Source of the DNA: an uncultured virus (IMG/VR IMGVR_UViG_3300021138_000003)
Lineage: Duplodnaviria; Heunggongvirae; Uroviricota; Caudoviricetes
IMG/VR virus record: IMGVR_UViG_3300021138_000003
Length of the DNA: 64,000 nucleotides
Direction: 5' to 3' (one strand)
Shown here piece by piece: positions 51,507-60,256 of this stretch (position 1 is its first letter; every line of letters begins with the position of its first letter). The translations under genes were made by a program, and so were the position numbers. The notes under the pieces were generated by a model that saw only the letters and a list, made by a program, of their open reading frames with translations, was not told where the DNA came from and searched no databases.

Positions 51507-52520
51507 ATGCAATTGTTTAAAAAAGTAGCAGCGTTTACCGATATTCACTTCGGTCTTAAAAGTAATAGTGCAACTCACAACAATGATTGTGAAGAATTTG
51601 TTGATTGGTTTATCGAGGAATCTAAAAAAGCAGGTGCAGAAACCTGCATATTCCTCGGTGACTGGCATCATAATCGAAACACTATTAATTTAACCACACT
51701 CGATACCAGTTTGCGATGCTTAGAAAAACTAGGTGCTGCTTTTGAGCAGTTCTTTTGGTTTCCGGGCAATCACGATTTGTTCTATAAAGACAAAAGAGAT
51801 GTGCATTCTAGTGCTTTTGGTAAACATATTCCAGGAGTAACTATCGTCAATAAAATCACAACAATCGGTGATGTTACACTTGTTCCGTGGTTAATTAAAG
51901 ACGAATGGAAAAACATCAGCAAAATCAAAAGCAAATATATGTTTGGTCATTTTGAATTGCCACTGTTTTATATGAATGCAATGGTCCAGATGCCAGATCA
52001 CGGCGAACTTCAATCCGTGCATTTCAAACATCAGGATTATGTGTTCTCTGGACATTTTCACAAGCGTCAAAATCGTGATAAGATTTGGTACATCGGAAAT
52101 GCATTCCCACATAACTTTGCAGACACAGGCGACGACGATCGCGGTATGATGCTCCTAGATTGGGGTGGAAAACCAGAGTTTATCTCATGGGACGATGCTC
52201 CTAAGTTTAGAAATCTTAAACTCAGCGAGCTTATCGATCAAAAAGACGACATTCTCAAAAGTAAAATGTATCTGAGAGTTAATCTCGACATCGATATCTC
52301 ATATGAAGAAGCTAATTTCATTAAGGAATCATTTGTTAATGAGTATGATATTAGAGAAATTAGTCTAATTCAAGACAAAGTTAGTTTAGATGCTGCAACC
52401 GAGGATAACCCAGATGTAGAATTCGAATCTGTAGATAAAATCGTAATGGAACAACTGATCAAAATAGAATCAGATGCATTTGATACCAAAATGCTTTTAG
52501 AGATTTATAATAACCTATAA
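51507..52520 (+). CDS. recombination endonuclease subunit gp47 (Mre11/SbcD-like)
   Basis: DIHFG, GDWHH, GNHD, GHFE, SGHFH. Confidence 0.93.
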   Translation: MQLFKKVAAFTDIHFGLKSNSATHNNDCEEFVDWFIEESKKAGAETCIFLGDWHHNRNTINLTTLDTSLRCLEKLGAAFEQFFWFPGNHDLFYKDKRDVHSSAFGKHIPGVTIVNKITTIGDVTLVPWLIKDEWKNISKIKSKYMFGHFELPLFYMNAMVQMPDHGELQSVHFKHQDYVFSGHFHKRQNRDKIWYIGNAFPHNFADTGDDDRGMMLLDWGGKPEFISWDDAPKFRNLKLSELIDQKDDILKSKMYLRVNLDIDISYEEANFIKESFVNEYDIREISLIQDKVSLDAATEDNPDVEFESVDKIVMEQLIKIESDAFDTKMLLEIYNNL

Positions 52521-52578: not shown

Positions 52579-53244
52579 ATGAGACGACAATTTAATGACA
52601 AAGAATTAGAATTATTACACAATTTAGATTATAGTTCGAAAGAATTAGAAGAAATTTTAGGATTACCTAGTTATACTATTCAGCAATCTCGCAATAAATT
52701 AGGTATTAAAGCAAAAATTGGGCGGCCTTCGGGTATACCTTCATCGTTAAAAGGTGTAAAGAGATCAATCGAAATAGGTAAAAAAATTTCGTTAGCAAAA
52801 AAAGGAAAAGCTAATCCTAATAAAACGCGAAAAGAAACTAGAGAATGCATAGGTAAAGAATGTAATAATATGTTTATAGTTGTACAGTCTAGTTCTAAAA
52901 AATATTGTTCTCATTCCTGCCAACAACGAACAACAAATGTTGCAAAAAAAGGAATAGGTACTAGAAAAATTCGTAATATATTAACGCCAGAATATAAACG
53001 TTACGCAAGAAAAGTTCACGGGTTAAGTCAAAAAATATATGAACAAAATATCAATATAATCAATCCTAACAATTACCCCAGAACACGTTGCGGAATAGAT
53101 GGCGGCTGGCAACTAGATCATATAATTCCTATCAAAGAATGTTTCGAAAAAGGGTTAACTCCTCAAGAAGCATCACAAATCAGTAACCTTAGAATGTTAC
53201 CATGGAAAGATAATTTAATGAGGCAATATGGCATTTCGAATTAA
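52579..53244 (+). mobile_element. free-standing HNH homing endonuclease gene
   Basis: C-terminal WQLDHIIP...SNLRMLPWKDN; Cys-rich CxxxxC...YCSHSC segment; basic N-terminus; lies between gp47 and gp46. Confidence 0.8.
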
Positions 53245-55015
53245 GAGTTTAACTTTGAAAAACTTCCTCTCAGTAGGAAATCAAACCCAGGCAGTCGATT
53301 TTGACAAAGAACATCTCACACTAGTTCTAGGTGAAAACCTAGATCTCGGTGGTGATGATAGCGGTAGTCGAAATGGAACGGGCAAAACTACTATGATCAA
53401 CGCACTTAGCTATGCATTATATGGCCAAGCGTTGACCAACATTCGAAAAGAGAATTTAATCAATAAAACTAATGGTAAACACATGTTGGTTACTGTAGAG
53501 TTTGAAACAAAGGGTTCTACTTATCGAATCGAGCGTGGTCGTAAGCCTAACGTCTTAAAACTGTTTAAAGATGATCAAGAACAGAAAAAAGACGAAACCG
53601 AAGACGACGCACAAGGGGATAGCAGAGAAACCCAAAAAGATATTGAACAACTCCTAGGCATGAAGCATACTATGTTTAAGCACTTGGTTGCGCTTAACAC
53701 ATATACCGAACCGTTCTTATCTATGGGTGCTGCTGCACAACGAGAAGTCATCGAACAGCTATTAGGTATTACTGTTCTCAGCGAAAAAGCTGAAAATCTT
53801 AAAATAGCAATGAAAAAAGTCAAAGACGACATTCAATTAGAAACATTTAAAATTGAAAGTATTAAGACCGCCAACAGCAATGTTCAAAAAAGCATCGATA
53901 GCATCTCTATTAAAAGTACTGCTTGGGAAAATAAACAACAACAAGAAATAGATAAGCTAGGTAAAGCTATTATAGAATTAAGTTCTGTTGATATCGATGC
54001 AGAACTCAATGCCCATGTTACTCTTAAAGAATGGAATACAAATATTTCAACTAAAAGAGAACTGGTAAAACAGCAGGCAACATTAGAGTCTGCACTAAGT
54101 CGAGCAGAAAAGGCTGTGGACAAATACGCTAGAGAAATTTCTTCTCTAGAAGATAAAAAATGTCCCAGCTGCGAACAATCATTGCTCGATCATAAACACA
54201 GCGAAATGGTAGAAATTGTTAAAAAAGATCACAAAGAAAGCGTCATTTATGCAGATAAAGTCCGCAATGACTTATCAGTAATCAATGTCGCATTACAAGA
54301 GCTCGGAGATTTAACAAAGCCCGCTGATACATTTTATGAAACAGAGAGTGAAGCTCTAGGTCATAAAAATAATCTTGCTAGTTTAGAAAACAGTTTGGAA
54401 TCTAAACTATTAGAGATGAACCCTTATCTTGAGCAAATTGAAGATCTAACGGAAACTGCACTCCAAGAAATTGATTGGACTACAGTTAATGAGTTGACAA
54501 AACTTAAAGATCATCAAGATTTCATGCATAAGCTACTAACAAATAAAGATTCTTTCATTAGAAAAAAGATCATAGATCAAAATCTAAGTTACCTAAACAA
54601 AAGATTGAGTTACTATGTCAGTAAACTAGGATTGCCGCATTTAGTGGTATTCCAAAATGACCTATCTGTAGAAATTACACAGCTAGGTCAAGAACTAGAT
54701 TTTGACAATCTAAGTCGTGGTGAACGAAATCGACTAATTTTAAGTCTAAGTTTTGCGTTCCGCGATGTTTGGGAAAACTTATATCAACACATTAACCTAC
54801 TGTTTGTAGACGAGCTAATCGATGCTGGCATGGATGCCGCTGGCGTAGAAGCAGGGTTAAGCGTACTGAAGAAAATGGCCAGAGAAAGAAATAAAAACGT
54901 ATTTTTGATCAGTCATAAAGATGACTTAGTTGGTCGAGTAAACACCGTTCTACGAGTAATCAAGGAGAACGGTTTCACGAGCTATGATTCAAATCCAGAA
55001 TATGTGGAGGCCTGA
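53228..55015 (+). CDS. recombination ATPase subunit gp46 (Rad50/SbcC-like)
   Basis: KNFLSVGN, Walker A NGTGKT, zinc hook CPSC, signature LSRGE, LFVDE, ISHK. Confidence 0.95.
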   Translation: MAFRIKSLTLKNFLSVGNQTQAVDFDKEHLTLVLGENLDLGGDDSGSRNGTGKTTMINALSYALYGQALTNIRKENLINKTNGKHMLVTVEFETKGSTYRIERGRKPNVLKLFKDDQEQKKDETEDDAQGDSRETQKDIEQLLGMKHTMFKHLVALNTYTEPFLSMGAAAQREVIEQLLGITVLSEKAENLKIAMKKVKDDIQLETFKIESIKTANSNVQKSIDSISIKSTAWENKQQQEIDKLGKAIIELSSVDIDAELNAHVTLKEWNTNISTKRELVKQQATLESALSRAEKAVDKYAREISSLEDKKCPSCEQSLLDHKHSEMVEIVKKDHKESVIYADKVRNDLSVINVALQELGDLTKPADTFYETESEALGHKNNLASLENSLESKLLEMNPYLEQIEDLTETALQEIDWTTVNELTKLKDHQDFMHKLLTNKDSFIRKKIIDQNLSYLNKRLSYYVSKLGLPHLVVFQNDLSVEITQLGQELDFDNLSRGERNRLILSLSFAFRDVWENLYQHINLLFVDELIDAGMDAAGVEAGLSVLKKMARERNKNVFLISHKDDLVGRVNTVLRVIKENGFTSYDSNPEYVEA

Positions 55016-55266
55016 TGTCAGAACTGATAAACAAGTATACTGAACTACATGACGAGTTTATAGACGCATTAGTTGAGTACCATACTTTACATCTATCGTT
55101 TTTAGAAAGACAAAGTCCATCTAGAACTTCAGATTTAAGAAAAGTTTTAAAAAGATTGCGACTAACCGCGAAGGCCATGGAACAAATTGCCCAACTACGT
55201 AAAAAAGAAAGAAGCGTAGAATGGAGCGCAGTCAACAGAGTAAAAAAGGATAATACAAATGAGTGA
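55015..55266 (+). CDS. small helical protein, possible divergent paralog of the downstream histone-like protein
   Basis: 83 aa; TSDLRKVLKRL resembles GTRARKALGDL of the next ORF. Confidence 0.6.
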   Translation: MSELINKYTELHDEFIDALVEYHTLHLSFLERQSPSRTSDLRKVLKRLRLTAKAMEQIAQLRKKERSVEWSAVNRVKKDNTNE

Positions 55267-55453
55267 TACAACAACCGCAATTCAGACCGCAGTAGATTCG
55301 TTTCTAGCAGAAGATGCTAAGTTTACCAAGGGTAATGCTGCTGCCGGTACTCGTGCTCGCAAGGCACTAGGTGACCTCGGCAAGCTCGTTAAGACTCGTC
55401 GTAACGAAATTACTGCTGAAAAGAATGCACGCAAGGAAGCCAAGGCCAAGTAA
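55259..55453 (+). CDS. histone H1-like (Hc1-family) basic protein
   Basis: KFTKGNAAAGTRARKAL...KTRRNEI. Confidence 0.7.
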   Translation: MSDTTTAIQTAVDSFLAEDAKFTKGNAAAGTRARKALGDLGKLVKTRRNEITAEKNARKEAKAK

Positions 55454-55879
55454 TTGACCTGGTTCTTTCAGAACAATATTGTATCTGAACTACCCGAAGA
55501 CTGTGTTGGTTTCGTTTATTTGATTACCAACACGGTCTCCGGCCGTATGTACATAGGCAAAAAACTAGCAAAATTTTCAAAGACGACCTACAAAACTGTA
55601 AAGTTGAAGAACGGCACAAAAAAACGTAAAAAAATTCGAGGCAAAATTGAATCTGATTGGCAAACGTATTATGGTTCAAGTGAGAACCTAAATGCAGACG
55701 TTGAGGCCTTAGGCAAGGATAAATTCAAGCGAGAGATTCTTTATTACTGCAAGTCTAAAGCAGAATGCAGTTATGTTGAAGCTCGGGAACAATTTAACCG
55801 TAAAGTTTTAGAAACAACAGATTATTATAACGGACATATTTCCGTCCGTGTACATGGCTCACACATTAAGAAACTGTAA
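55454..55879 (+). CDS. small GIY-YIG nuclease-family protein (Seg-like)
   Basis: TTG start; GFVYLITN...MYIGKK, YYGSS, FKREIL, YYN. Confidence 0.85.
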   Translation: MTWFFQNNIVSELPEDCVGFVYLITNTVSGRMYIGKKLAKFSKTTYKTVKLKNGTKKRKKIRGKIESDWQTYYGSSENLNADVEALGKDKFKREILYYCKSKAECSYVEAREQFNRKVLETTDYYNGHISVRVHGSHIKKL

Positions 55880-55880
55880 T

Positions 55881-56162
55881 ATGACTGACTATAATAACGC
55901 AAAAAAACACGATTATGATCTACAAGATATAATTGCGTTGGAAAAAATTAGGCACAAAATTCAAGATCCTAAATGGCAAAACTATAGTCTCGGCAAAACT
56001 AAAAACAGACCACTATCTCAAAATACAAAAATCAACTTAGGCAAACACGAACAACACGATTGGCAACCACTCAAAGGTCCATTTGGTCCACATGCAGGCA
56101 AGATAATTTGTAAGACCTGCAAAGACAAATGGGTCGCATGGCTTCCTAAAGGCTCCATCTAA
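55881..56162 (+). CDS. small putative zinc-binding protein
   Basis: ATG 55881 immediately after the previous stop; GPHAGKIICKTC...WVAWL. Confidence 0.65.
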   Translation: MTDYNNAKKHDYDLQDIIALEKIRHKIQDPKWQNYSLGKTKNRPLSQNTKINLGKHEQHDWQPLKGPFGPHAGKIICKTCKDKWVAWLPKGSI

Positions 56163-56164
56163 GG

Positions 56165-56545
56165 CACTACAGTTCGTAACACATAAGGGTGTCGGCCCAG
56201 TACTAAACCGATGTGGAAAAGGCGATGATTCCTAGTCGCACACGTAACATGTTAAGCATTCCCCACTGGGTCTAAGATTGACATAGAATGTCTGTTACCA
56301 TTCGAAAACACTAATGCTCTTAAAAACCTTGAGGACGGAACGAACCCAAGGATACTACAAAATTGCTTGTAGGATGTCGCGGTAGGCAGGGAAAGCGCAG
56401 AGCCCATAGAGCGGGTGTATAAACAAGGAACCTACTTCCAATGTCTTGGCTGTGAGAACTCACATGAAAACCAAGGATGGCGGAACCTTTAAGGAGGTTC
56501 CGTCTGACTGCAACAATCTACATGAATATTAAGTTGCTTCGCTCA
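56165..56545. ncRNA. candidate large structured non-coding RNA (family not recognised; strand unproven, likely +)
   Basis: No ORF of 60 aa or more; about 46% GC by hand count over 56161-56520; at least 9 complementary helices including a probable pseudoknot. Confidence 0.55.
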
Positions 56546-56665
56546 TAGATTCATATAAATCAAACTAAATGAAAAAAGAAAAATTGCTTCGAACGATTAG
56601 TGAAGAAGCAAATGAGCTTCAGCTCATTATTATAATAAATAAAACATCGCTTGTGGAGCATAAGA

Positions 56666-57499
56666 ATGAAAATCAATGAATTAATGACTGAATCGCAGAT
56701 AGATGAATTAAGTCTAGGTGGGATTGGCAGAGGGCTAGCTAAAGGAGTAGGTGGGTTTGCTAGAGGTGCAGGCGCACTAGCTGGCGGCCTTGCAGGCGCT
56801 GGCGCTGCTGCTCGACAAGGATATGCTGCTGGTCGATCAGCAGTTAGTGGTCAAACTCTGACTCATTCAAATGGCAGATCAATTAAAAAAGGCGAACAGT
56901 TTGATGCTGTAACTGGTAAACCATTACCACAAGCTAGTGAACAACCATCTCCGCAAGCTACTACAGCAGCGCCTATTTCGCAGGGTACAACTCCTACACA
57001 AGGTACTGCAACTACTTCACAGACTACAAATCCATTTGCTGCACCTACTGTTCCTCAAAGACCTGCAACTACTACTAATTTTAGAAGTCCAACTAGCGGA
57101 GGCATCACTACAGGTGGTAGCTTATTACGTACTGGTTCAACAACTGCTGCTTCAAAGGCTCCGCAAGCCGTTGCTCCTACTCCTAAAGCTGCTGCTCCTC
57201 AGGCCGCTAAGATATCTCCAGAAGAACAGCAATGGGAAGCAAATCTTAAAAAGCAAGGTATGACTCCTGACGAAATTGAAAAGGCTCGTCCGGCTTATCG
57301 AGCTCGTCAAAATAGACCACTTCCGCAGGCAGGTGGTACAACACTAGCTGCTAATAGACCAGCAATGAAGTCTGGAGATTATGATTGGGCAGGCGGAGGA
57401 GTTGGTCCAGACACTAAAATAGGCGATATTAAAAATATGCAGAAACCTACATCAGAATCTGTGATTTTTTATAGTAAATTTCTAGGTCAAGACATTTAA
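56666..57499 (+). CDS. putative virion internal protein, low complexity
   Basis: Start MKINELMTESQIDE after GGAG RBS and AATAAATA; rich in Gly/Ala/Thr/Pro. Confidence 0.65.
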   Translation: MKINELMTESQIDELSLGGIGRGLAKGVGGFARGAGALAGGLAGAGAAARQGYAAGRSAVSGQTLTHSNGRSIKKGEQFDAVTGKPLPQASEQPSPQATTAAPISQGTTPTQGTATTSQTTNPFAAPTVPQRPATTTNFRSPTSGGITTGGSLLRTGSTTAASKAPQAVAPTPKAAAPQAAKISPEEQQWEANLKKQGMTPDEIEKARPAYRARQNRPLPQAGGTTLAANRPAMKSGDYDWAGGGVGPDTKIGDIKNMQKPTSESVIFYSKFLGQDI

Positions 57500-58242
57500 T
57501 TATTGGAATTTTTAAGAGATGCAAATCGCGCCTTGCGGCCTTCTGAAATTGCTCTCTTATGTTCTTCGGATTTAGGCTTACGCATTTTTTGTTTAGTCTC
57601 TTCAGATTTTGGTCCAAGTTTCTTTCCCTTGAGGCTATCTGATAATTTCTGTTTATGTTCTTCGGATTTAATTTTGCCTTTGAGGCCAGCCGATATTTTT
57701 TTAGATATTTCTTTTTTCTGTTGGTCTGAAAATTCTACAGGATCTCTATTTTTCTGCGCAATACTCATTCTTTCTTTTTGCGCTAAAGTTCGCGTTTTTC
57801 CTATATTTGCTATCCGGCGTTTTTCTATAGTTTCTGGAGAAGATATGCGCCCTAAATTTCCTTTTGAAATATTAGCACGATGTTCACTACTTAATATTTT
57901 ACCTTTAAATTTCTCACTTTGAATTTTAGAGGCTTCTTTTTTAATAACTTCATATAATCTAGAATTAATATATCGATGTTGATATTGTCGTGCGCGTTTC
58001 ATTCCGTTGCACGCATAAATCATTTTATGATAATCATTACCAATTGTGAACTTAGTTAATAAAAAATGACAAATAAAATGTTCTCTAGCTGTTAATCTCA
58101 CAAGATTTGATTCATCATTATTACCACCTAAGCTTCTTGGTATTATATGATGTACTTCGGAATAATCTAAAATCCTATATTGTGATTTTGCATTCTGAAT
58201 GATATTATTATACCATTTATTATATTTGTTATCTATAAACAT
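57496..58242 (-). mobile_element. free-standing HNH endonuclease gene with NUMOD3 repeats
   Basis: EVHHIIPRSLGG...NLVRLTAREHFICH; repeated SEEHKxKxS NUMOD3-like units. Confidence 0.88.
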
Positions 58243-58295: not shown

Positions 58296-58532
58296 CTAAA
58301 AGAAATTAAGACCAGTTTCTTTGGTTGTATTGAGATTATCTTCGATAATTCCGTAGATAATCTCACGAGTTTCAACATCTAGTTGAAATGCTAGGTCTAG
58401 GGTAACACTACCTCTCATAAACCAACAAATTTTAAGTAGATCTTTTTTAATAGCCTTGGAATCTTTGTCAAATTGAAGTACAAAATCTTCAATCTCAGAG
58501 CTATCGAGTGTTAAGATCTTTGCGCGAAAAAA
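58296..58532 (-). CDS. -1 frame extension of the gp26-like gene (gp51 / gpT-like), probably reached by programmed frameshift
   Basis: 78 open codons FFRAKILTLD...CWFMRGSV...ETGLNFF*, beginning at T TTT TTC; the only ATG lies halfway (58418). Confidence 0.65.
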   Translation of the reverse strand, partial: FFRAKILTLDSSEIEDFVLQFDKDSKAIKKDLLKICWFMRGSVTLDLAFQLDVETREIIYGIIEDNLNTTKETGLNFF

Positions 58533-59380
58533 TCCGAGTTGTCCATTGTCACTGGGAGAAGATATGTTTCAGGTGCACCTGCTTCAATCTGCTCTTCAGA
58601 TGATCTAATTGTTATTGGCTTAAGACTGTTTGCATCGCGCATGGCAGCAATGTGTTCTTGTATTTTTTTGTAAACATCTTTGTCTGCATTATCGAGAAAT
58701 TCTTTAATAAATTCTCGTTCTCTAACAATTGTGCCCGGGATTTCTATGGCTTTAATACTTTCGACTGTGAGATCTAAAGTAATATCGCTCATAGAGCCTA
58801 GTCCTTGATTGTAAATTTCTAATTTTTGTTCTTCACTTAACTCGTCATTATTTGCCGCCTGTAATAGACGCTGAGTTTCAAAAGTTTTTAAACTGGTATT
58901 TGTAAGATGTTTGTATGTTAGCGGACGAATGAAACAAGTTAAATTATCAGTGATCTGCACAGCTTCTTTCCACGGATCTGATCTTGATAATTCGTCGAGC
59001 AAGATGCGTAGGTCGACTTGGTAGGTTACATCTTCGTTGGTGTTAGGAACTCGATGAGTGAGATCCATCATTTCTCCGTAGGTTGCTAATCTAATAGCAA
59101 TTAACAGAGTATCAACGTCGATGTTTGGAGTATCCCAGGCATTTTTGATGTTAGGAATGCAGCTCTCGATCACATCAACTACTGCTTGACCGTTGAGTAG
59201 CGCATCAGGAGTTTTAAACATTAGTTCATCTTTGGCAGTCATGGAATAAACTGGCAATTGGCCGTTTTCTGGATAATTGATACTACCATCGGGCCAATAG
59301 GCTCCGTTGCTGGGTAAACTAATGTAGATCTTAGGTTGTCTCATGAAGTTAGACAACGGATTTTGTTTAGATACAGTCAT
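58511..59380 (-). CDS. gp26-like baseplate hub / tail assembly chaperone, paralog B
   Basis: NPLSNFMRQPK...LPSNG...YSMTAKDE...IAIRLATYG...RPLTYK...DFF. Confidence 0.8.
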   Translation of the reverse strand: MTVSKQNPLSNFMRQPKIYISLPSNGAYWPDGSINYPENGQLPVYSMTAKDELMFKTPDALLNGQAVVDVIESCIPNIKNAWDTPNIDVDTLLIAIRLATYGEMMDLTHRVPNTNEDVTYQVDLRILLDELSRSDPWKEAVQITDNLTCFIRPLTYKHLTNTSLKTFETQRLLQAANNDELSEEQKLEIYNQGLGSMSDITLDLTVESIKAIEIPGTIVREREFIKEFLDNADKDVYKKIQEHIAAMRDANSLKPITIRSSEEQIEAGAPETYLLPVTMDNSDFFAQRS

Positions 59381-59389
59381 GTATTATCC

Positions 59390-60256
59390 TTATAAGAAGA
59401 AATTAGTAGGTGTAAACTCTACAGTTACTTCGATTTCTTCCTCTTTACTGATTTGTTTAATCTCGTCTGTGGCCTTAACCTTAACGGGTTTAACGCTATT
59501 TGCAGAGGATTCGGTGTCAATTTTGTTTTTAATTATATTGAACAATTCTCTGTCACATTGTTCTACAAATTCTTTGATAAAGAATTCATTTTCTACAACT
59601 TCTTCTCCGGATTCAACTCGTGATATTGAATCTGCTACAGTGCTAAGGGTATATTGAGATAATTTATTGAAACTATTTTTAAATAATTCTAATTTTCTAT
59701 CCTCGGACATTTCGTCATCATTGACTACACTCATAATTTTCTGAGTTTCTAGTGCTTCTAATCCAGCTTTAGCAATTGTTTTATAAGACAACGGTTTGAT
59801 ATAAATTTTCAAATCATCATTGATTACTAGTTCTTCGTCCCAGGATGCATCATTATATAATTGATCTAAAATTAGTGAAAGATCGACATCAACTGAAAAT
59901 AATACATTATTAACAGTTACTGGAGATTTTAAAATATTACCATAGGTTGCAATCCTTATTGCAACCAATAACGCATCTAAATCTATACTAGGAATCGACC
60001 AAGCATTTTTTATAGACGGAATGCAACTTTGAATAATGCTTACTAATGCCTGTCCGTTTGCAAGTGCAACTGGATTTTTCAATGCAATTTCGTCTTTGGC
60101 AGTCATGGAAAATACATCATATTCATTGTTCTCTGAAAAGTCGATAGACCCTTCGTCCCAATAAATTCCTCTACTTGGTAATTTTACCTGTAATTTAGGC
60201 TGCCGCATGAGGTTTGATAAAGGGTTGACCTTTGGTTTATGTAGTGTTTTCTGCAT
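59390..60256 (-). CDS. gp26-like baseplate hub / tail assembly chaperone, paralog A
   Basis: NPLSNLMRQPK...LPSRG...FSMTAKDE...VAIRIATYG...KPLSYK...NFF. Confidence 0.8.
   Translation of the reverse strand: MQKTLHKPKVNPLSNLMRQPKLQVKLPSRGIYWDEGSIDFSENNEYDVFSMTAKDEIALKNPVALANGQALVSIIQSCIPSIKNAWSIPSIDLDALLVAIRIATYGNILKSPVTVNNVLFSVDVDLSLILDQLYNDASWDEELVINDDLKIYIKPLSYKTIAKAGLEALETQKIMSVVNDDEMSEDRKLELFKNSFNKLSQYTLSTVADSISRVESGEEVVENEFFIKEFVEQCDRELFNIIKNKIDTESSANSVKPVKVKATDEIKQISKEEEIEVTVEFTPTNFFL

Follow-up and report, generated by a model that had tools for sequence, protein, structure and literature searches.

The 64,000-nucleotide (nt) stretch of DNA analysed here (hereafter the window; IMG/VR record IMGVR_UViG_3300021138_000003) comes from an uncultured T4-like phage. 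Between positions 56177 and 56527 of its + strand, downstream of a gene for a small GIY-YIG nuclease, lies what comparative sequence analysis indicates is a real, large, folded and pseudoknotted RNA of ~350 nt under selection. A preliminary description of this DNA had proposed a structured + strand phage RNA of about that length outside Rfam, and the proposal holds: the RNA was found in at least 120 contigs, covariation is present in most of its helices, and no Rfam family matches it. Near its 3′ end the RNA carries two copies of one 7-nt box, ACAUGAA, which it may present to an outside partner. Few large structured phage RNAs are known, and this one, at 350-450 nt, is nearly universal in a large uncultured aquatic clade of T4-like phages; the form seen in the window is in no catalogue.

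The spacer that holds the RNA had drawn attention as the longest non-coding part of the window, with a raised GC content. Both observations stand: 56163-56650 (488 nt) is the longest stretch of the window without open reading frames (ORFs) of at least 70 amino acids (aa), and 56165-56545 has 45.4% GC against 38.5% for the whole window. Relatives were collected through the GIY-YIG protein, for which 580 relatives were confirmed in IMG/VR and 80 of these kept. The whole spacer was aligned by nhmmer directly after the GIY-YIG stop codon in seven of the 80 kept loci, and a 3′-end motif, GGTTCCGTCTGAC-N5-8-AATCTACATGAA, matched at least 120 further IMG/VR viral contigs. Among 185,579 species genomes, the same motif matched two contigs of one marine metagenome-assembled genome. 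These contigs (L209 and L210; PBPT01000016.1 and PBPT01000082.1, of 335 kb and 153 kb), from a genome labelled Candidatus Neomarinimicrobiota, hold gp46, the GIY-YIG gene and a B-type RNA (types are described below) in the phage order, and may be phage contigs binned with that genome. In the alignments of relatives, invariant blocks lie between helices that change on both sides, and inserts of variable length fall in the peripheral hairpins. Conservation and covariation, on which the preliminary description had made the RNA depend, are both present. A protein-coding or pseudogene reading was rejected, as these alignments show no conserved frame and their indels do not come in threes.

Pairing was tested on 108 distinct sequences for the 3′ half and on 55 distinct full-length sequences for the 5′ half. 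The same pairing with the partners slid served as control, joined by 500 shuffles for the 3′ half. A 43-pair model of the 3′ half is paired in 81.7% of cells, compared to 29.5-47.1% with slid partners; its covariation score is 0.193 against at most 0.068, and none of the 500 shuffles reaches the observed pairing or score. In the 5′ half, the helices H1, P2a, H2, H3 and H4 (Table 1) are paired in 100, 100, 83.5, 99.0 and 98.9% of cells, respectively, against 20-45% in the slid controls. The exception is P2a, where slides of two columns still give 80-92% because its strand is a GUGUG-like repeat; the support for P2a is a switch from U-A to A-U in seven sequences. A long-range GUGGA/UCUAC pairing suggested by RNAalifold was rejected because in seven sequences GUGG changes to GAGU and the change is compensated in the nearby CAC of P2a, not in the invariant UCUAC. 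The periphery varies in length: H3 encloses insertions of up to ~60 nt in relatives, and Pb holds inserts of tens of nt, up to ~130 nt in one locus (L183). The loop motif of Pa, GGAACGA (56337-56343), is invariant in the 108 sequences. Pc and Pd show changes from G-C to A-U, and the 5′ strand of Pg varies by G-U/A-U wobble alone. For Pe, at least 5 base pairs form in 95/108 observed and 77/108 shuffled sequences. This control is too permissive, so the case for Pe is made by its compensatory variants (e.g. GUCUCGG/UUGAGAU and UCUCGA/UCGAGA).

Seven of eleven helices proposed from the window sequence were recovered in this way, namely GTCGG/CCGAT (H1), GCGAT/GTCGC (H2, with many two-sided changes), CCTTG/CAAGG (Pa), CTACAA/TTGTAG (Pb, a variable hairpin with inserts), GTAGG/CCTAC (Pc), GGCGGAACC/GGTTCCGTC (Pg, changing solely by wobble) and TCTTGG/CCAAGG (Pe, with the weak shuffled control just mentioned). 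An eighth, TGTGAG/CTCACA, is neutral, being 65% paired without covariation. The other three do no better than slid controls: AGCATT/AATGCT is paired in 41% of cells, GACAT/ATGTC in 56.6%, in competition with the covarying H3 and H4, and the proposed pseudoknot CCCAGT/ACTGGG in 46.5%. The RNA is pseudoknotted as had been claimed, but through another pairing, between GCG at 56379-81 and CGC at 56396-98 in the loop of Pd. These pairs form in 99.1% of cells and occur as GAC/GUC, GAU/AUC, GUG/CAC, GCG/CGC and GUA/UAC. The strand had been assigned from G-U pairs, and this too is borne out. G-U pairs are frequent and would be A·C on the opposite strand (one pair of the GGAACC stem, for example, is U-G in 74 of the 108 sequences), so the + strand is the RNA.

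The RNA belongs to a family whose members differ in their 5′ part. Among 83 elements with enough upstream sequence, 59 can be aligned to the window over their full length (type A), and the other 24 only from the middle onward, having a different 5′ part (type B). The window has both marks of the A/B core: the pseudoknot of the 3 nt before Pc with the loop of Pd, and the invariant GGAACGA loop. A third type (C), of ~400 nt, was found in the same place with a profile made from the downstream gaps; it occurs in 70 of the 73 remaining GIY-YIG loci, the last three being too short. The profile hidden Markov model of type C does not match the window, so the A and C bodies are not alignable. The Rfam motif Polynucleobacter-1 (RF01718) covers the first ~140 nt of type C, with scores of 90-121 bits against a gathering threshold of 37 bits in 7/7 loci tested; alongside this positive control, the window stays below the threshold. 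On these alignments, the 5′ body is shown to be interchangeable, with three non-alignable types in front of a common 3′ twin-box module. Judged by position and module, the window RNA is a sister form of a longer RNA that contains Polynucleobacter-1. The earlier claim of an unrecognised class is right for the window itself and needs correction for the family, since sister RNAs at the same position hold this Rfam motif. Polynucleobacter-1, until now an orphan, can be re-framed as part of a far longer phage RNA, in which it is one of several 5′ bodies that replace each other, and its Rfam model could be extended. In our loci L001-L080, it makes up the 5′ third of a conserved RNA of ~400 nt (e.g. 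L064:4420-4808 and L030:2527-2922). By eye, type C has, between this third and the twin-box module at its end, a second pseudoknot-like region, in which ACAAC, looped out by a GAGG/CCUC hairpin, pairs with GUUGU.

Searches for other known RNA families were negative. Rfam 15 gave no match at gathering thresholds over the whole window; at E up to 10, the region 55900-56800 gave two chance-level matches only, and nine A/B-type relatives matched no family at E up to 5. No T-box riboswitch, the marks of which are a codon-like specifier and an antiterminator pairing with tRNA NCCA, was matched in Rfam; a box with AUG or AUA followed by A bears a loose resemblance to a T-box specifier, nothing more. 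A type III toxin-antitoxin RNA would be a tandem array of near-identical units of about 34-45 nt beside an endoribonuclease gene, and the region 56163-56568 holds no tandem repeat. The only tandem array (56767-56799) lies inside the next gene, and twin-box modules 1 and 2 share short motifs only. Group I and group II introns have no Rfam match in the window, the upstream ORFs end in stops, and no ORF continues past 56527, so there are no flanking exons that join into one reading frame. These results also bear on the possibility that the RNA is a ribozyme, for example one that would cleave itself from the operon transcript at the conserved 5′ leader. Its core is indeed large, pseudoknotted and highly conserved, with invariant unpaired nucleotides, and an RNA that starts directly after a stop codon needs some way of forming its 5′ end. 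Yet no ribozyme or intron family was matched in Rfam 15 even at E up to 10, flanking exons that could be joined were not found, and three different 5′ bodies are hard to square with one catalytic core. We therefore consider a ribozyme highly improbable.

What the three types have in common is a 3′ module with a fixed order of parts: a helix, (U)GAC, a few nt, ACUC, a 7-nt box, a hairpin and UGAC, continued by 5-6 nt, AAUCU, the same 7-nt box and a small UUC-loop hairpin with a covarying stem. In the window, the box is the ACATGAA that had been noticed to occur twice, at 56462 and 56520; among A- and B-type RNAs, box 1 does not vary. Written as a pattern (A[CA]UC+NNAURAN, then 15-110 nt with a hairpin, then G[AG]C+3-10 nt+[AGU][AU]UCU+the same NNAURAN), the module matches once in the window (56458, + strand), once each in 188 of 205 loci, and not at all in five shuffles of all loci. 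A looser pattern, applied to the 80 GIY-YIG loci, found equal boxes in 44 distinct loci; four gave unequal strings at evidently wrong places, and 22 (A-type, short or divergent) were unmatched. Ten box variants occur: ACAUGAA, AGAUAAU, GGAUGAU, GGAUGAA, GGAUAAU, AGAUGAG, GCAUAAU, GAAUAAU, AGAUGAU and GGAUGAG. Among distinct C-type sequences, 54/54 show no difference between the two boxes at any of the four variable positions. The mutual information of each variable box-1 column with the same column of box 2 is 0.94, 0.53, 0.99 and 1.01 bits, the next best values being 0.26-0.50. What the covariation preserves is thus the identity of the two boxes and not complementarity between them, which is most simply explained if a single outside partner reads both. 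A search for a 7-nt complement at a conserved place found none in the RNA, in the 1.5 kb before it or in the 1.2 kb after it (the fullest bin has 18/177 sequences). Such identity, kept across ten variants, points to a programmable recognition element and offers experiments a direct point of attack. The small hairpin after the second box has covarying stems in relatives of all RNA types (ACGC/GCGU, CGUC/GACG, CAUC/GAUG and CUAC/GUAG) and is likely a 3′ end or processing signal.

Other roles for the box were set aside. Self-complementary kissing sites were rejected by eye, as short palindromes occur in some variants only. The boxes were also considered as mimics that pair with a tRNA anticodon loop (CAU or UAU with U33); pairing with the usual tRNA A37 would need U at box position 2, which is never U. 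As −10 promoter hexamers, the ATAAT variants fit and CATGAA and GATGAG do not, and no promoter-like site rises above chance.

Our proposed explanation, to which we would give an even chance, is that the RNA acts as a scaffold on which two identical recognition boxes are held out to a partner from outside. The RNA would be made as the 3′ end of an early or middle transcript that runs through gp47, gp46, the Hc1-like gene, the GIY-YIG gene and a small ORF; since the interval that separates it from the upstream genes has no promoter-like or terminator-like site above chance, co-transcription with those genes is most likely. The 3′ end of the RNA would fall close to the conserved UUC-loop hairpin motif that follows box 2. 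Once folded into a multi-helix body with a pseudoknotted core, the RNA would show its two 7-nt NNAURAN boxes to two copies of one trans partner. This partner could be a protein that binds two sites, or a nucleic acid in which a short stretch is complementary to the box. The sequence of the box would set specificity, and both boxes would change together when the partner differs.

Several results weigh against this explanation. Box positions A3, U4 and A6 never vary, which fits a structural or protein-binding motif equally well as a base-pairing seed. No binding partner for the boxes was found. In the best local fold of the window, box 1 is partly paired through TGTGAG/CTCACA, which makes its exposure uncertain. 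Types A and C are linked only by position and the short twin-box pattern, and the tree on which the inheritance of the boxes is read (see below) comes from a 140-aa protein and is weakly resolved. Finally, the folding energy of the window sequence gives no sign of structure: the minimum free energy of the + strand is −99.2 kcal/mol, against −98.2 ± 6.1 kcal/mol in shuffles (z −0.16), and 41/100 shuffles fold at least as well; the minus strand has z −1.67. A folding energy indistinguishable from shuffled controls had been named beforehand as a result that would tell against the RNA and, taken formally, it does. It is outweighed by the comparative data: conservation and covariation override the null folding energy, and the evidence for the structure is comparative, not thermodynamic.

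The position of the RNA ties it to the neighbouring nuclease gene. A twin-box RNA follows the GIY-YIG gene in 77/77 assessable close loci, a synteny far above chance, and in most of these it starts within ~10 nt of the GIY-YIG stop codon. Counted from the side of the RNA, among the 80 RNA loci whose upstream sequence reaches 1 kb or more, 75 have a GIY-YIG gene upstream on the same strand, and in three others (L104, L126 and L158) a PDDEXK phage endonuclease (PF24608, E 1e-24 to 1e-27) replaces it. Another mark of the family is its position just behind a small nuclease gene that itself follows gp46 in the same orientation: 78/80 loci have a GIY-YIG or PDDEXK gene upstream of the RNA, and in the window the RNA is preceded by gp46, the GIY-YIG gene and one inserted ORF. 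The near-identical contigs L083 and L084 have a different gene context without a nuclease nearby. Conversely, GIY-YIG homologues are present in 368 cultured phage records, and the three examined, in Melnitz-3, P-HM1 and phiM12 (41-52% identity), are followed by no long gap and no such RNA. The link between RNA and nuclease is not obligate; each occurs without the other.

One reading of this synteny is that the RNA is a working partner of the adjacent nuclease (guide, targeting subunit, activator or inhibitor), with the two boxes addressing two sites, e.g. both strands of an inverted repeat, or with the nuclease held inactive. The protein would suit such a partnership, as it is a bare SegE catalytic domain without a DNA-binding domain (Pfam PF19835 SegE_GIY-YIG, E 9.5e-34, profile positions 1-123 of 123). 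The boxes, moreover, show the kind of variation expected of specificity elements, and their changes do not follow the protein tree: a FastTree tree of 122 GIY-YIG proteins implies at least 30 box changes, against 47-50 when shuffled, and 12 flips between A/B and C types. Weak as this tree is, it shows that the protein and the putative specificity element of the RNA are not strictly co-inherited. Even so, we regard a partnership as unlikely, given the PDDEXK gene in the same slot at three loci, the two contigs without any nuclease, the three cultured phages with a homologue and no RNA, and boxes of only 7 nt with three invariant positions. The conserved order of T4-like core genes can also explain the synteny without interaction. 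A narrower and bolder version, in which the RNA is the specificity subunit of the upstream GIY-YIG or PDDEXK nuclease (i.e. an RNA-programmed phage nuclease), is very unlikely. Were it true, the two 7-nt boxes would address two copies of a short site, for example one on each strand of an inverted repeat, where a nuclease with a single active site could make a double-strand break, and phages would re-aim the enzyme by changing both boxes at once.

The occupation of one slot by two unrelated nuclease families, two HNH genes nearby in the window and the swapping of RNA body types relative to the nuclease tree could instead reflect a role at the level of DNA. On this view, the conserved RNA gene would be a target for homing or cleavage, with selfish nuclease genes of two folds settled next to it. 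The two boxes would serve as sites of recognition or immunity, or as recombination cores, and whatever the RNA does would have no connection with this. The title of one paper, 'Nuclease genes occupy boundaries of genetic exchange between bacteriophages' (PMC10055350), is in line with this idea. On the other hand, the GIY-YIG gene is present in every assessable locus, unlike mobile endonuclease genes, which are usually sporadic, and covariation and G-U pairs show selection on the RNA fold. There is also no specific genome-wide avoidance of the box once tetranucleotide content is allowed for, with ACATGAA found 7 times in the window against 15 in dinucleotide shuffles and 4.7 expected by an order-3 Markov model. 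A purely DNA-level role strikes us as distinctly improbable. A constant slot taken by a small nuclease of either of two unrelated folds, next to the recombination nuclease genes gp46/gp47, puts a part for the RNA in phage DNA transactions or in phage-phage competition within reach of tests.

The place of the RNA at the end of an operon raises a further alternative, a cis-acting 3′ untranslated element of the gp46-nuclease operon, which would stabilise the mRNA against 3′ exonucleases, direct its processing or control read-through into late genes. The RNA abuts the stop of the upstream ORF with no promoter above chance between them, it is followed by conserved small hairpins, and it sits where the + strand replication/recombination genes meet convergent baseplate genes. 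All the same, this alternative appears rather unlikely: a body of 350-450 nt with a pseudoknot, invariant single-stranded blocks and concerted boxes exceeds the needs of a stabiliser or terminator, the same RNA stands in a quite different gene context in L083/L084, and the genes downstream of it differ between loci, often lying on the other strand.

Table 1. Features of the RNA and its gene neighbourhood in the window.
Feature	Position	Strand	Remarks
gp47/SbcD-like gene	51507-52520	+	
HNH endonuclease gene	52579-53244	+	between the gp47-like and gp46 genes
gp46/SbcC-like gene	53228-55015	+	
83-aa ORF		+	between gp46 and the Hc1-like gene
Hc1-like histone gene	55259-55453	+	
SegE-type GIY-YIG nuclease gene	55454-55879	+	141 aa, catalytic domain only; Pfam PF19835
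Small Cys/His-containing ORF	55881-56162	+	93 aa; optional insert between nuclease gene and RNA
Single-stranded 5′ leader UAACACNNAAGG, A-type	56177-56190	+	invariant or near-invariant alignment columns
Hairpin H1, GUCGG/CCGAU	56191-56212	+	conserved CCAG-containing loop; 100% paired, 275 cells; GC to UA and GC to CG changes
P2a, GUG 56213-15 / CAC 56241-43	56213-56243	+	encloses GAAAA and H2; U-A in 48/55, A-U in 7/55
Hairpin H2, GCGAU/GUCGC	56222-26 / 56235-39	+	83.5% paired, many pair types
Helix H3, AUGUUAA 56249-55 / UUGACAU 56278-84	56249-56284	+	99.0% of 385 cells; slid controls 24-36%
Hairpin H4, GAAUG 56286-90 / CAUUC 56299-303	56286-56303	+	98.9% paired; at least 5 pair types centrally
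Hairpin Pa, CCUUG/CAAGG	56327-56351	+	84% paired; two-sided changes in all 4 counted pairs
Variable hairpin Pb, CUACAA/UUGUAG	56355-56372	+	~80% paired; two-sided changes in all counted pairs
Pseudoknotted core	56379-56435	+	GCG 56379-81 with CGC 56396-98, inside the loop of Pd
Pc, GUAGG/CCUAC	56382-86 / 56431-35	+	encloses Pd; 100% paired
Hairpin Pd, GGG/CCC	56389-91 / 56403-05	+	98% paired
Helix Pe, UCUUGG/CCAAGG	56444-56476	+	encloses twin-box module 1; compensatory variants in relatives
Twin-box module 1: GUGAG, ACUC, box 1 ACAUGAA	56462-56468 (box 1)	+	inside Pe
Hairpin Pg, GGCGGAACC/GGUUCCGUC	56479-56504	+	between the boxes; 98% paired; 3′ strand invariant
Twin-box module 2: UGAC, 6 nt, AAUCU, box 2 ACAUGAA	56505-56526	+	box 2 at 56520-56526
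Post-RNA motif UUGCUUCGC	56535-56543	+	small UUC-loop hairpin in relatives; degenerate in the window
277-aa low-complexity gene			downstream of the RNA
Second HNH gene	57496-58242	-	downstream of the RNA
Two adjacent paralogous baseplate-hub genes	58511-59380, 59390-60256	-	PHROG 150; PF12322 for the first

Around the RNA, the window holds two HNH/NUMOD3 endonuclease genes (Table 1). The one between the gp47-like and gp46 genes, which abut without it in locus L081, looks like a free-standing homing endonuclease insertion. The 93-aa Cys/His ORF matches no Pfam or PHROG family and has a homologue in 5/80 RNA loci (L073, L095, L104, L125 and L150); where it is present, the RNA starts just after its stop instead. 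In L004, L009, L012, L068 and L077, 820-1220 nt separate the nuclease gene from the C-type RNA, and all of these except L068 have an ORF of ~300-340 aa inserted there. In L084, the segment 380-1006 has a PP-loop ATPase-like ORF (SGGVDS motif, by eye) and a ClpP-like ORF. PHROG 447 and many GenBank phage records label the GIY-YIG protein 'NAD synthetase'; Pfam and a CDD note in phiM12 call it a GIY-YIG nuclease, and the former label looks like a propagated mis-annotation.

ARAGORN found no tRNA or tmRNA gene in the whole window. Past the RNA, the region of a 36-aa ORF (56569-56650) has two hairpins, UUGCUUC/GAAGCAA at ~56583-56609 and AUGAGC/GCUCAU at 56611-56628, followed near 56640 by a TATAAATA-like late promoter motif; the motif TTGCTTCG is present twice in this region, 50 nt apart. 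Comparable hairpins, with a GAGCGNNAGCGA-type loop, occur in relatives. For cultured phages, a comparison of 55200-57500 with 50,697 phage records by blastn gave no match other than the Hc1-like gene of S-SRM01; the nearest record available, a fragment of 19 kb, does not include the region. The window RNA type is absent from the genomes of Melnitz-3, P-HM1 and phiM12, where RF01718 had no match either, in a search without a positive control (the control genomes were silent too).

We found no literature description of the full-length RNA, its twin boxes or its link to a nuclease, in a search that left the alignments of PMC10690425 outside. That catalogue (Fremin et al. 2023) gives 10,006 candidates, each of at most 151 nt, and parts of the window RNA may be among them.

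Several known systems offer a comparison. Like the free-standing Seg GIY-YIG homing endonucleases of T4, the upstream protein has the SegE domain, which it matches from end to end; it differs in that it has no C-terminal DNA-binding part and in that its gene is found without exception in the assessable loci of the clade and is not sporadic. Seg enzymes are not known to have an RNA partner. Guide RNAs encoded beside small nucleases are represented by the omega RNA and HEARO of IscB and TnpB. The window RNA is like these in being a structured RNA of a few hundred nt that adjoins a small nuclease gene and has a short variable segment near its 3′ end. However, the nuclease here is GIY-YIG or PDDEXK, not RuvC/HNH, and the variable segment is 7 nt long, occurs twice and has three fixed positions. 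Transposon ends and an Rfam match are lacking, and RNA and nuclease each stand alone in some genomes.

GOLLD and ROOL are large phage-associated non-coding RNAs that are in Rfam and have no assigned function. Like them, the window RNA is large, complex in its fold, phage-borne, found by comparative genomics and variable in its peripheral insertions. Unlike them, it is smaller, has no Rfam match, does not lie beside tRNA genes and has twin identical boxes. The closest comparison is with Polynucleobacter-1, which one table row of Weinberg et al. (2010, PMC2864571) lists as 'Burkholderiales, fresh water/estuary', with its role unassigned. The C-type RNAs that contain RF01718 hold the same slot directly after the GIY-YIG gene and share with the window RNA the 3′ twin-box module and the UUC-loop hairpin. 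The window RNA has another 5′ fold, without an RF01718 match at any threshold tried, and where RF01718 is a motif of 141 nt, the RNA around it here is ~400 nt long, with a twin-box domain that lies outside the Rfam model.

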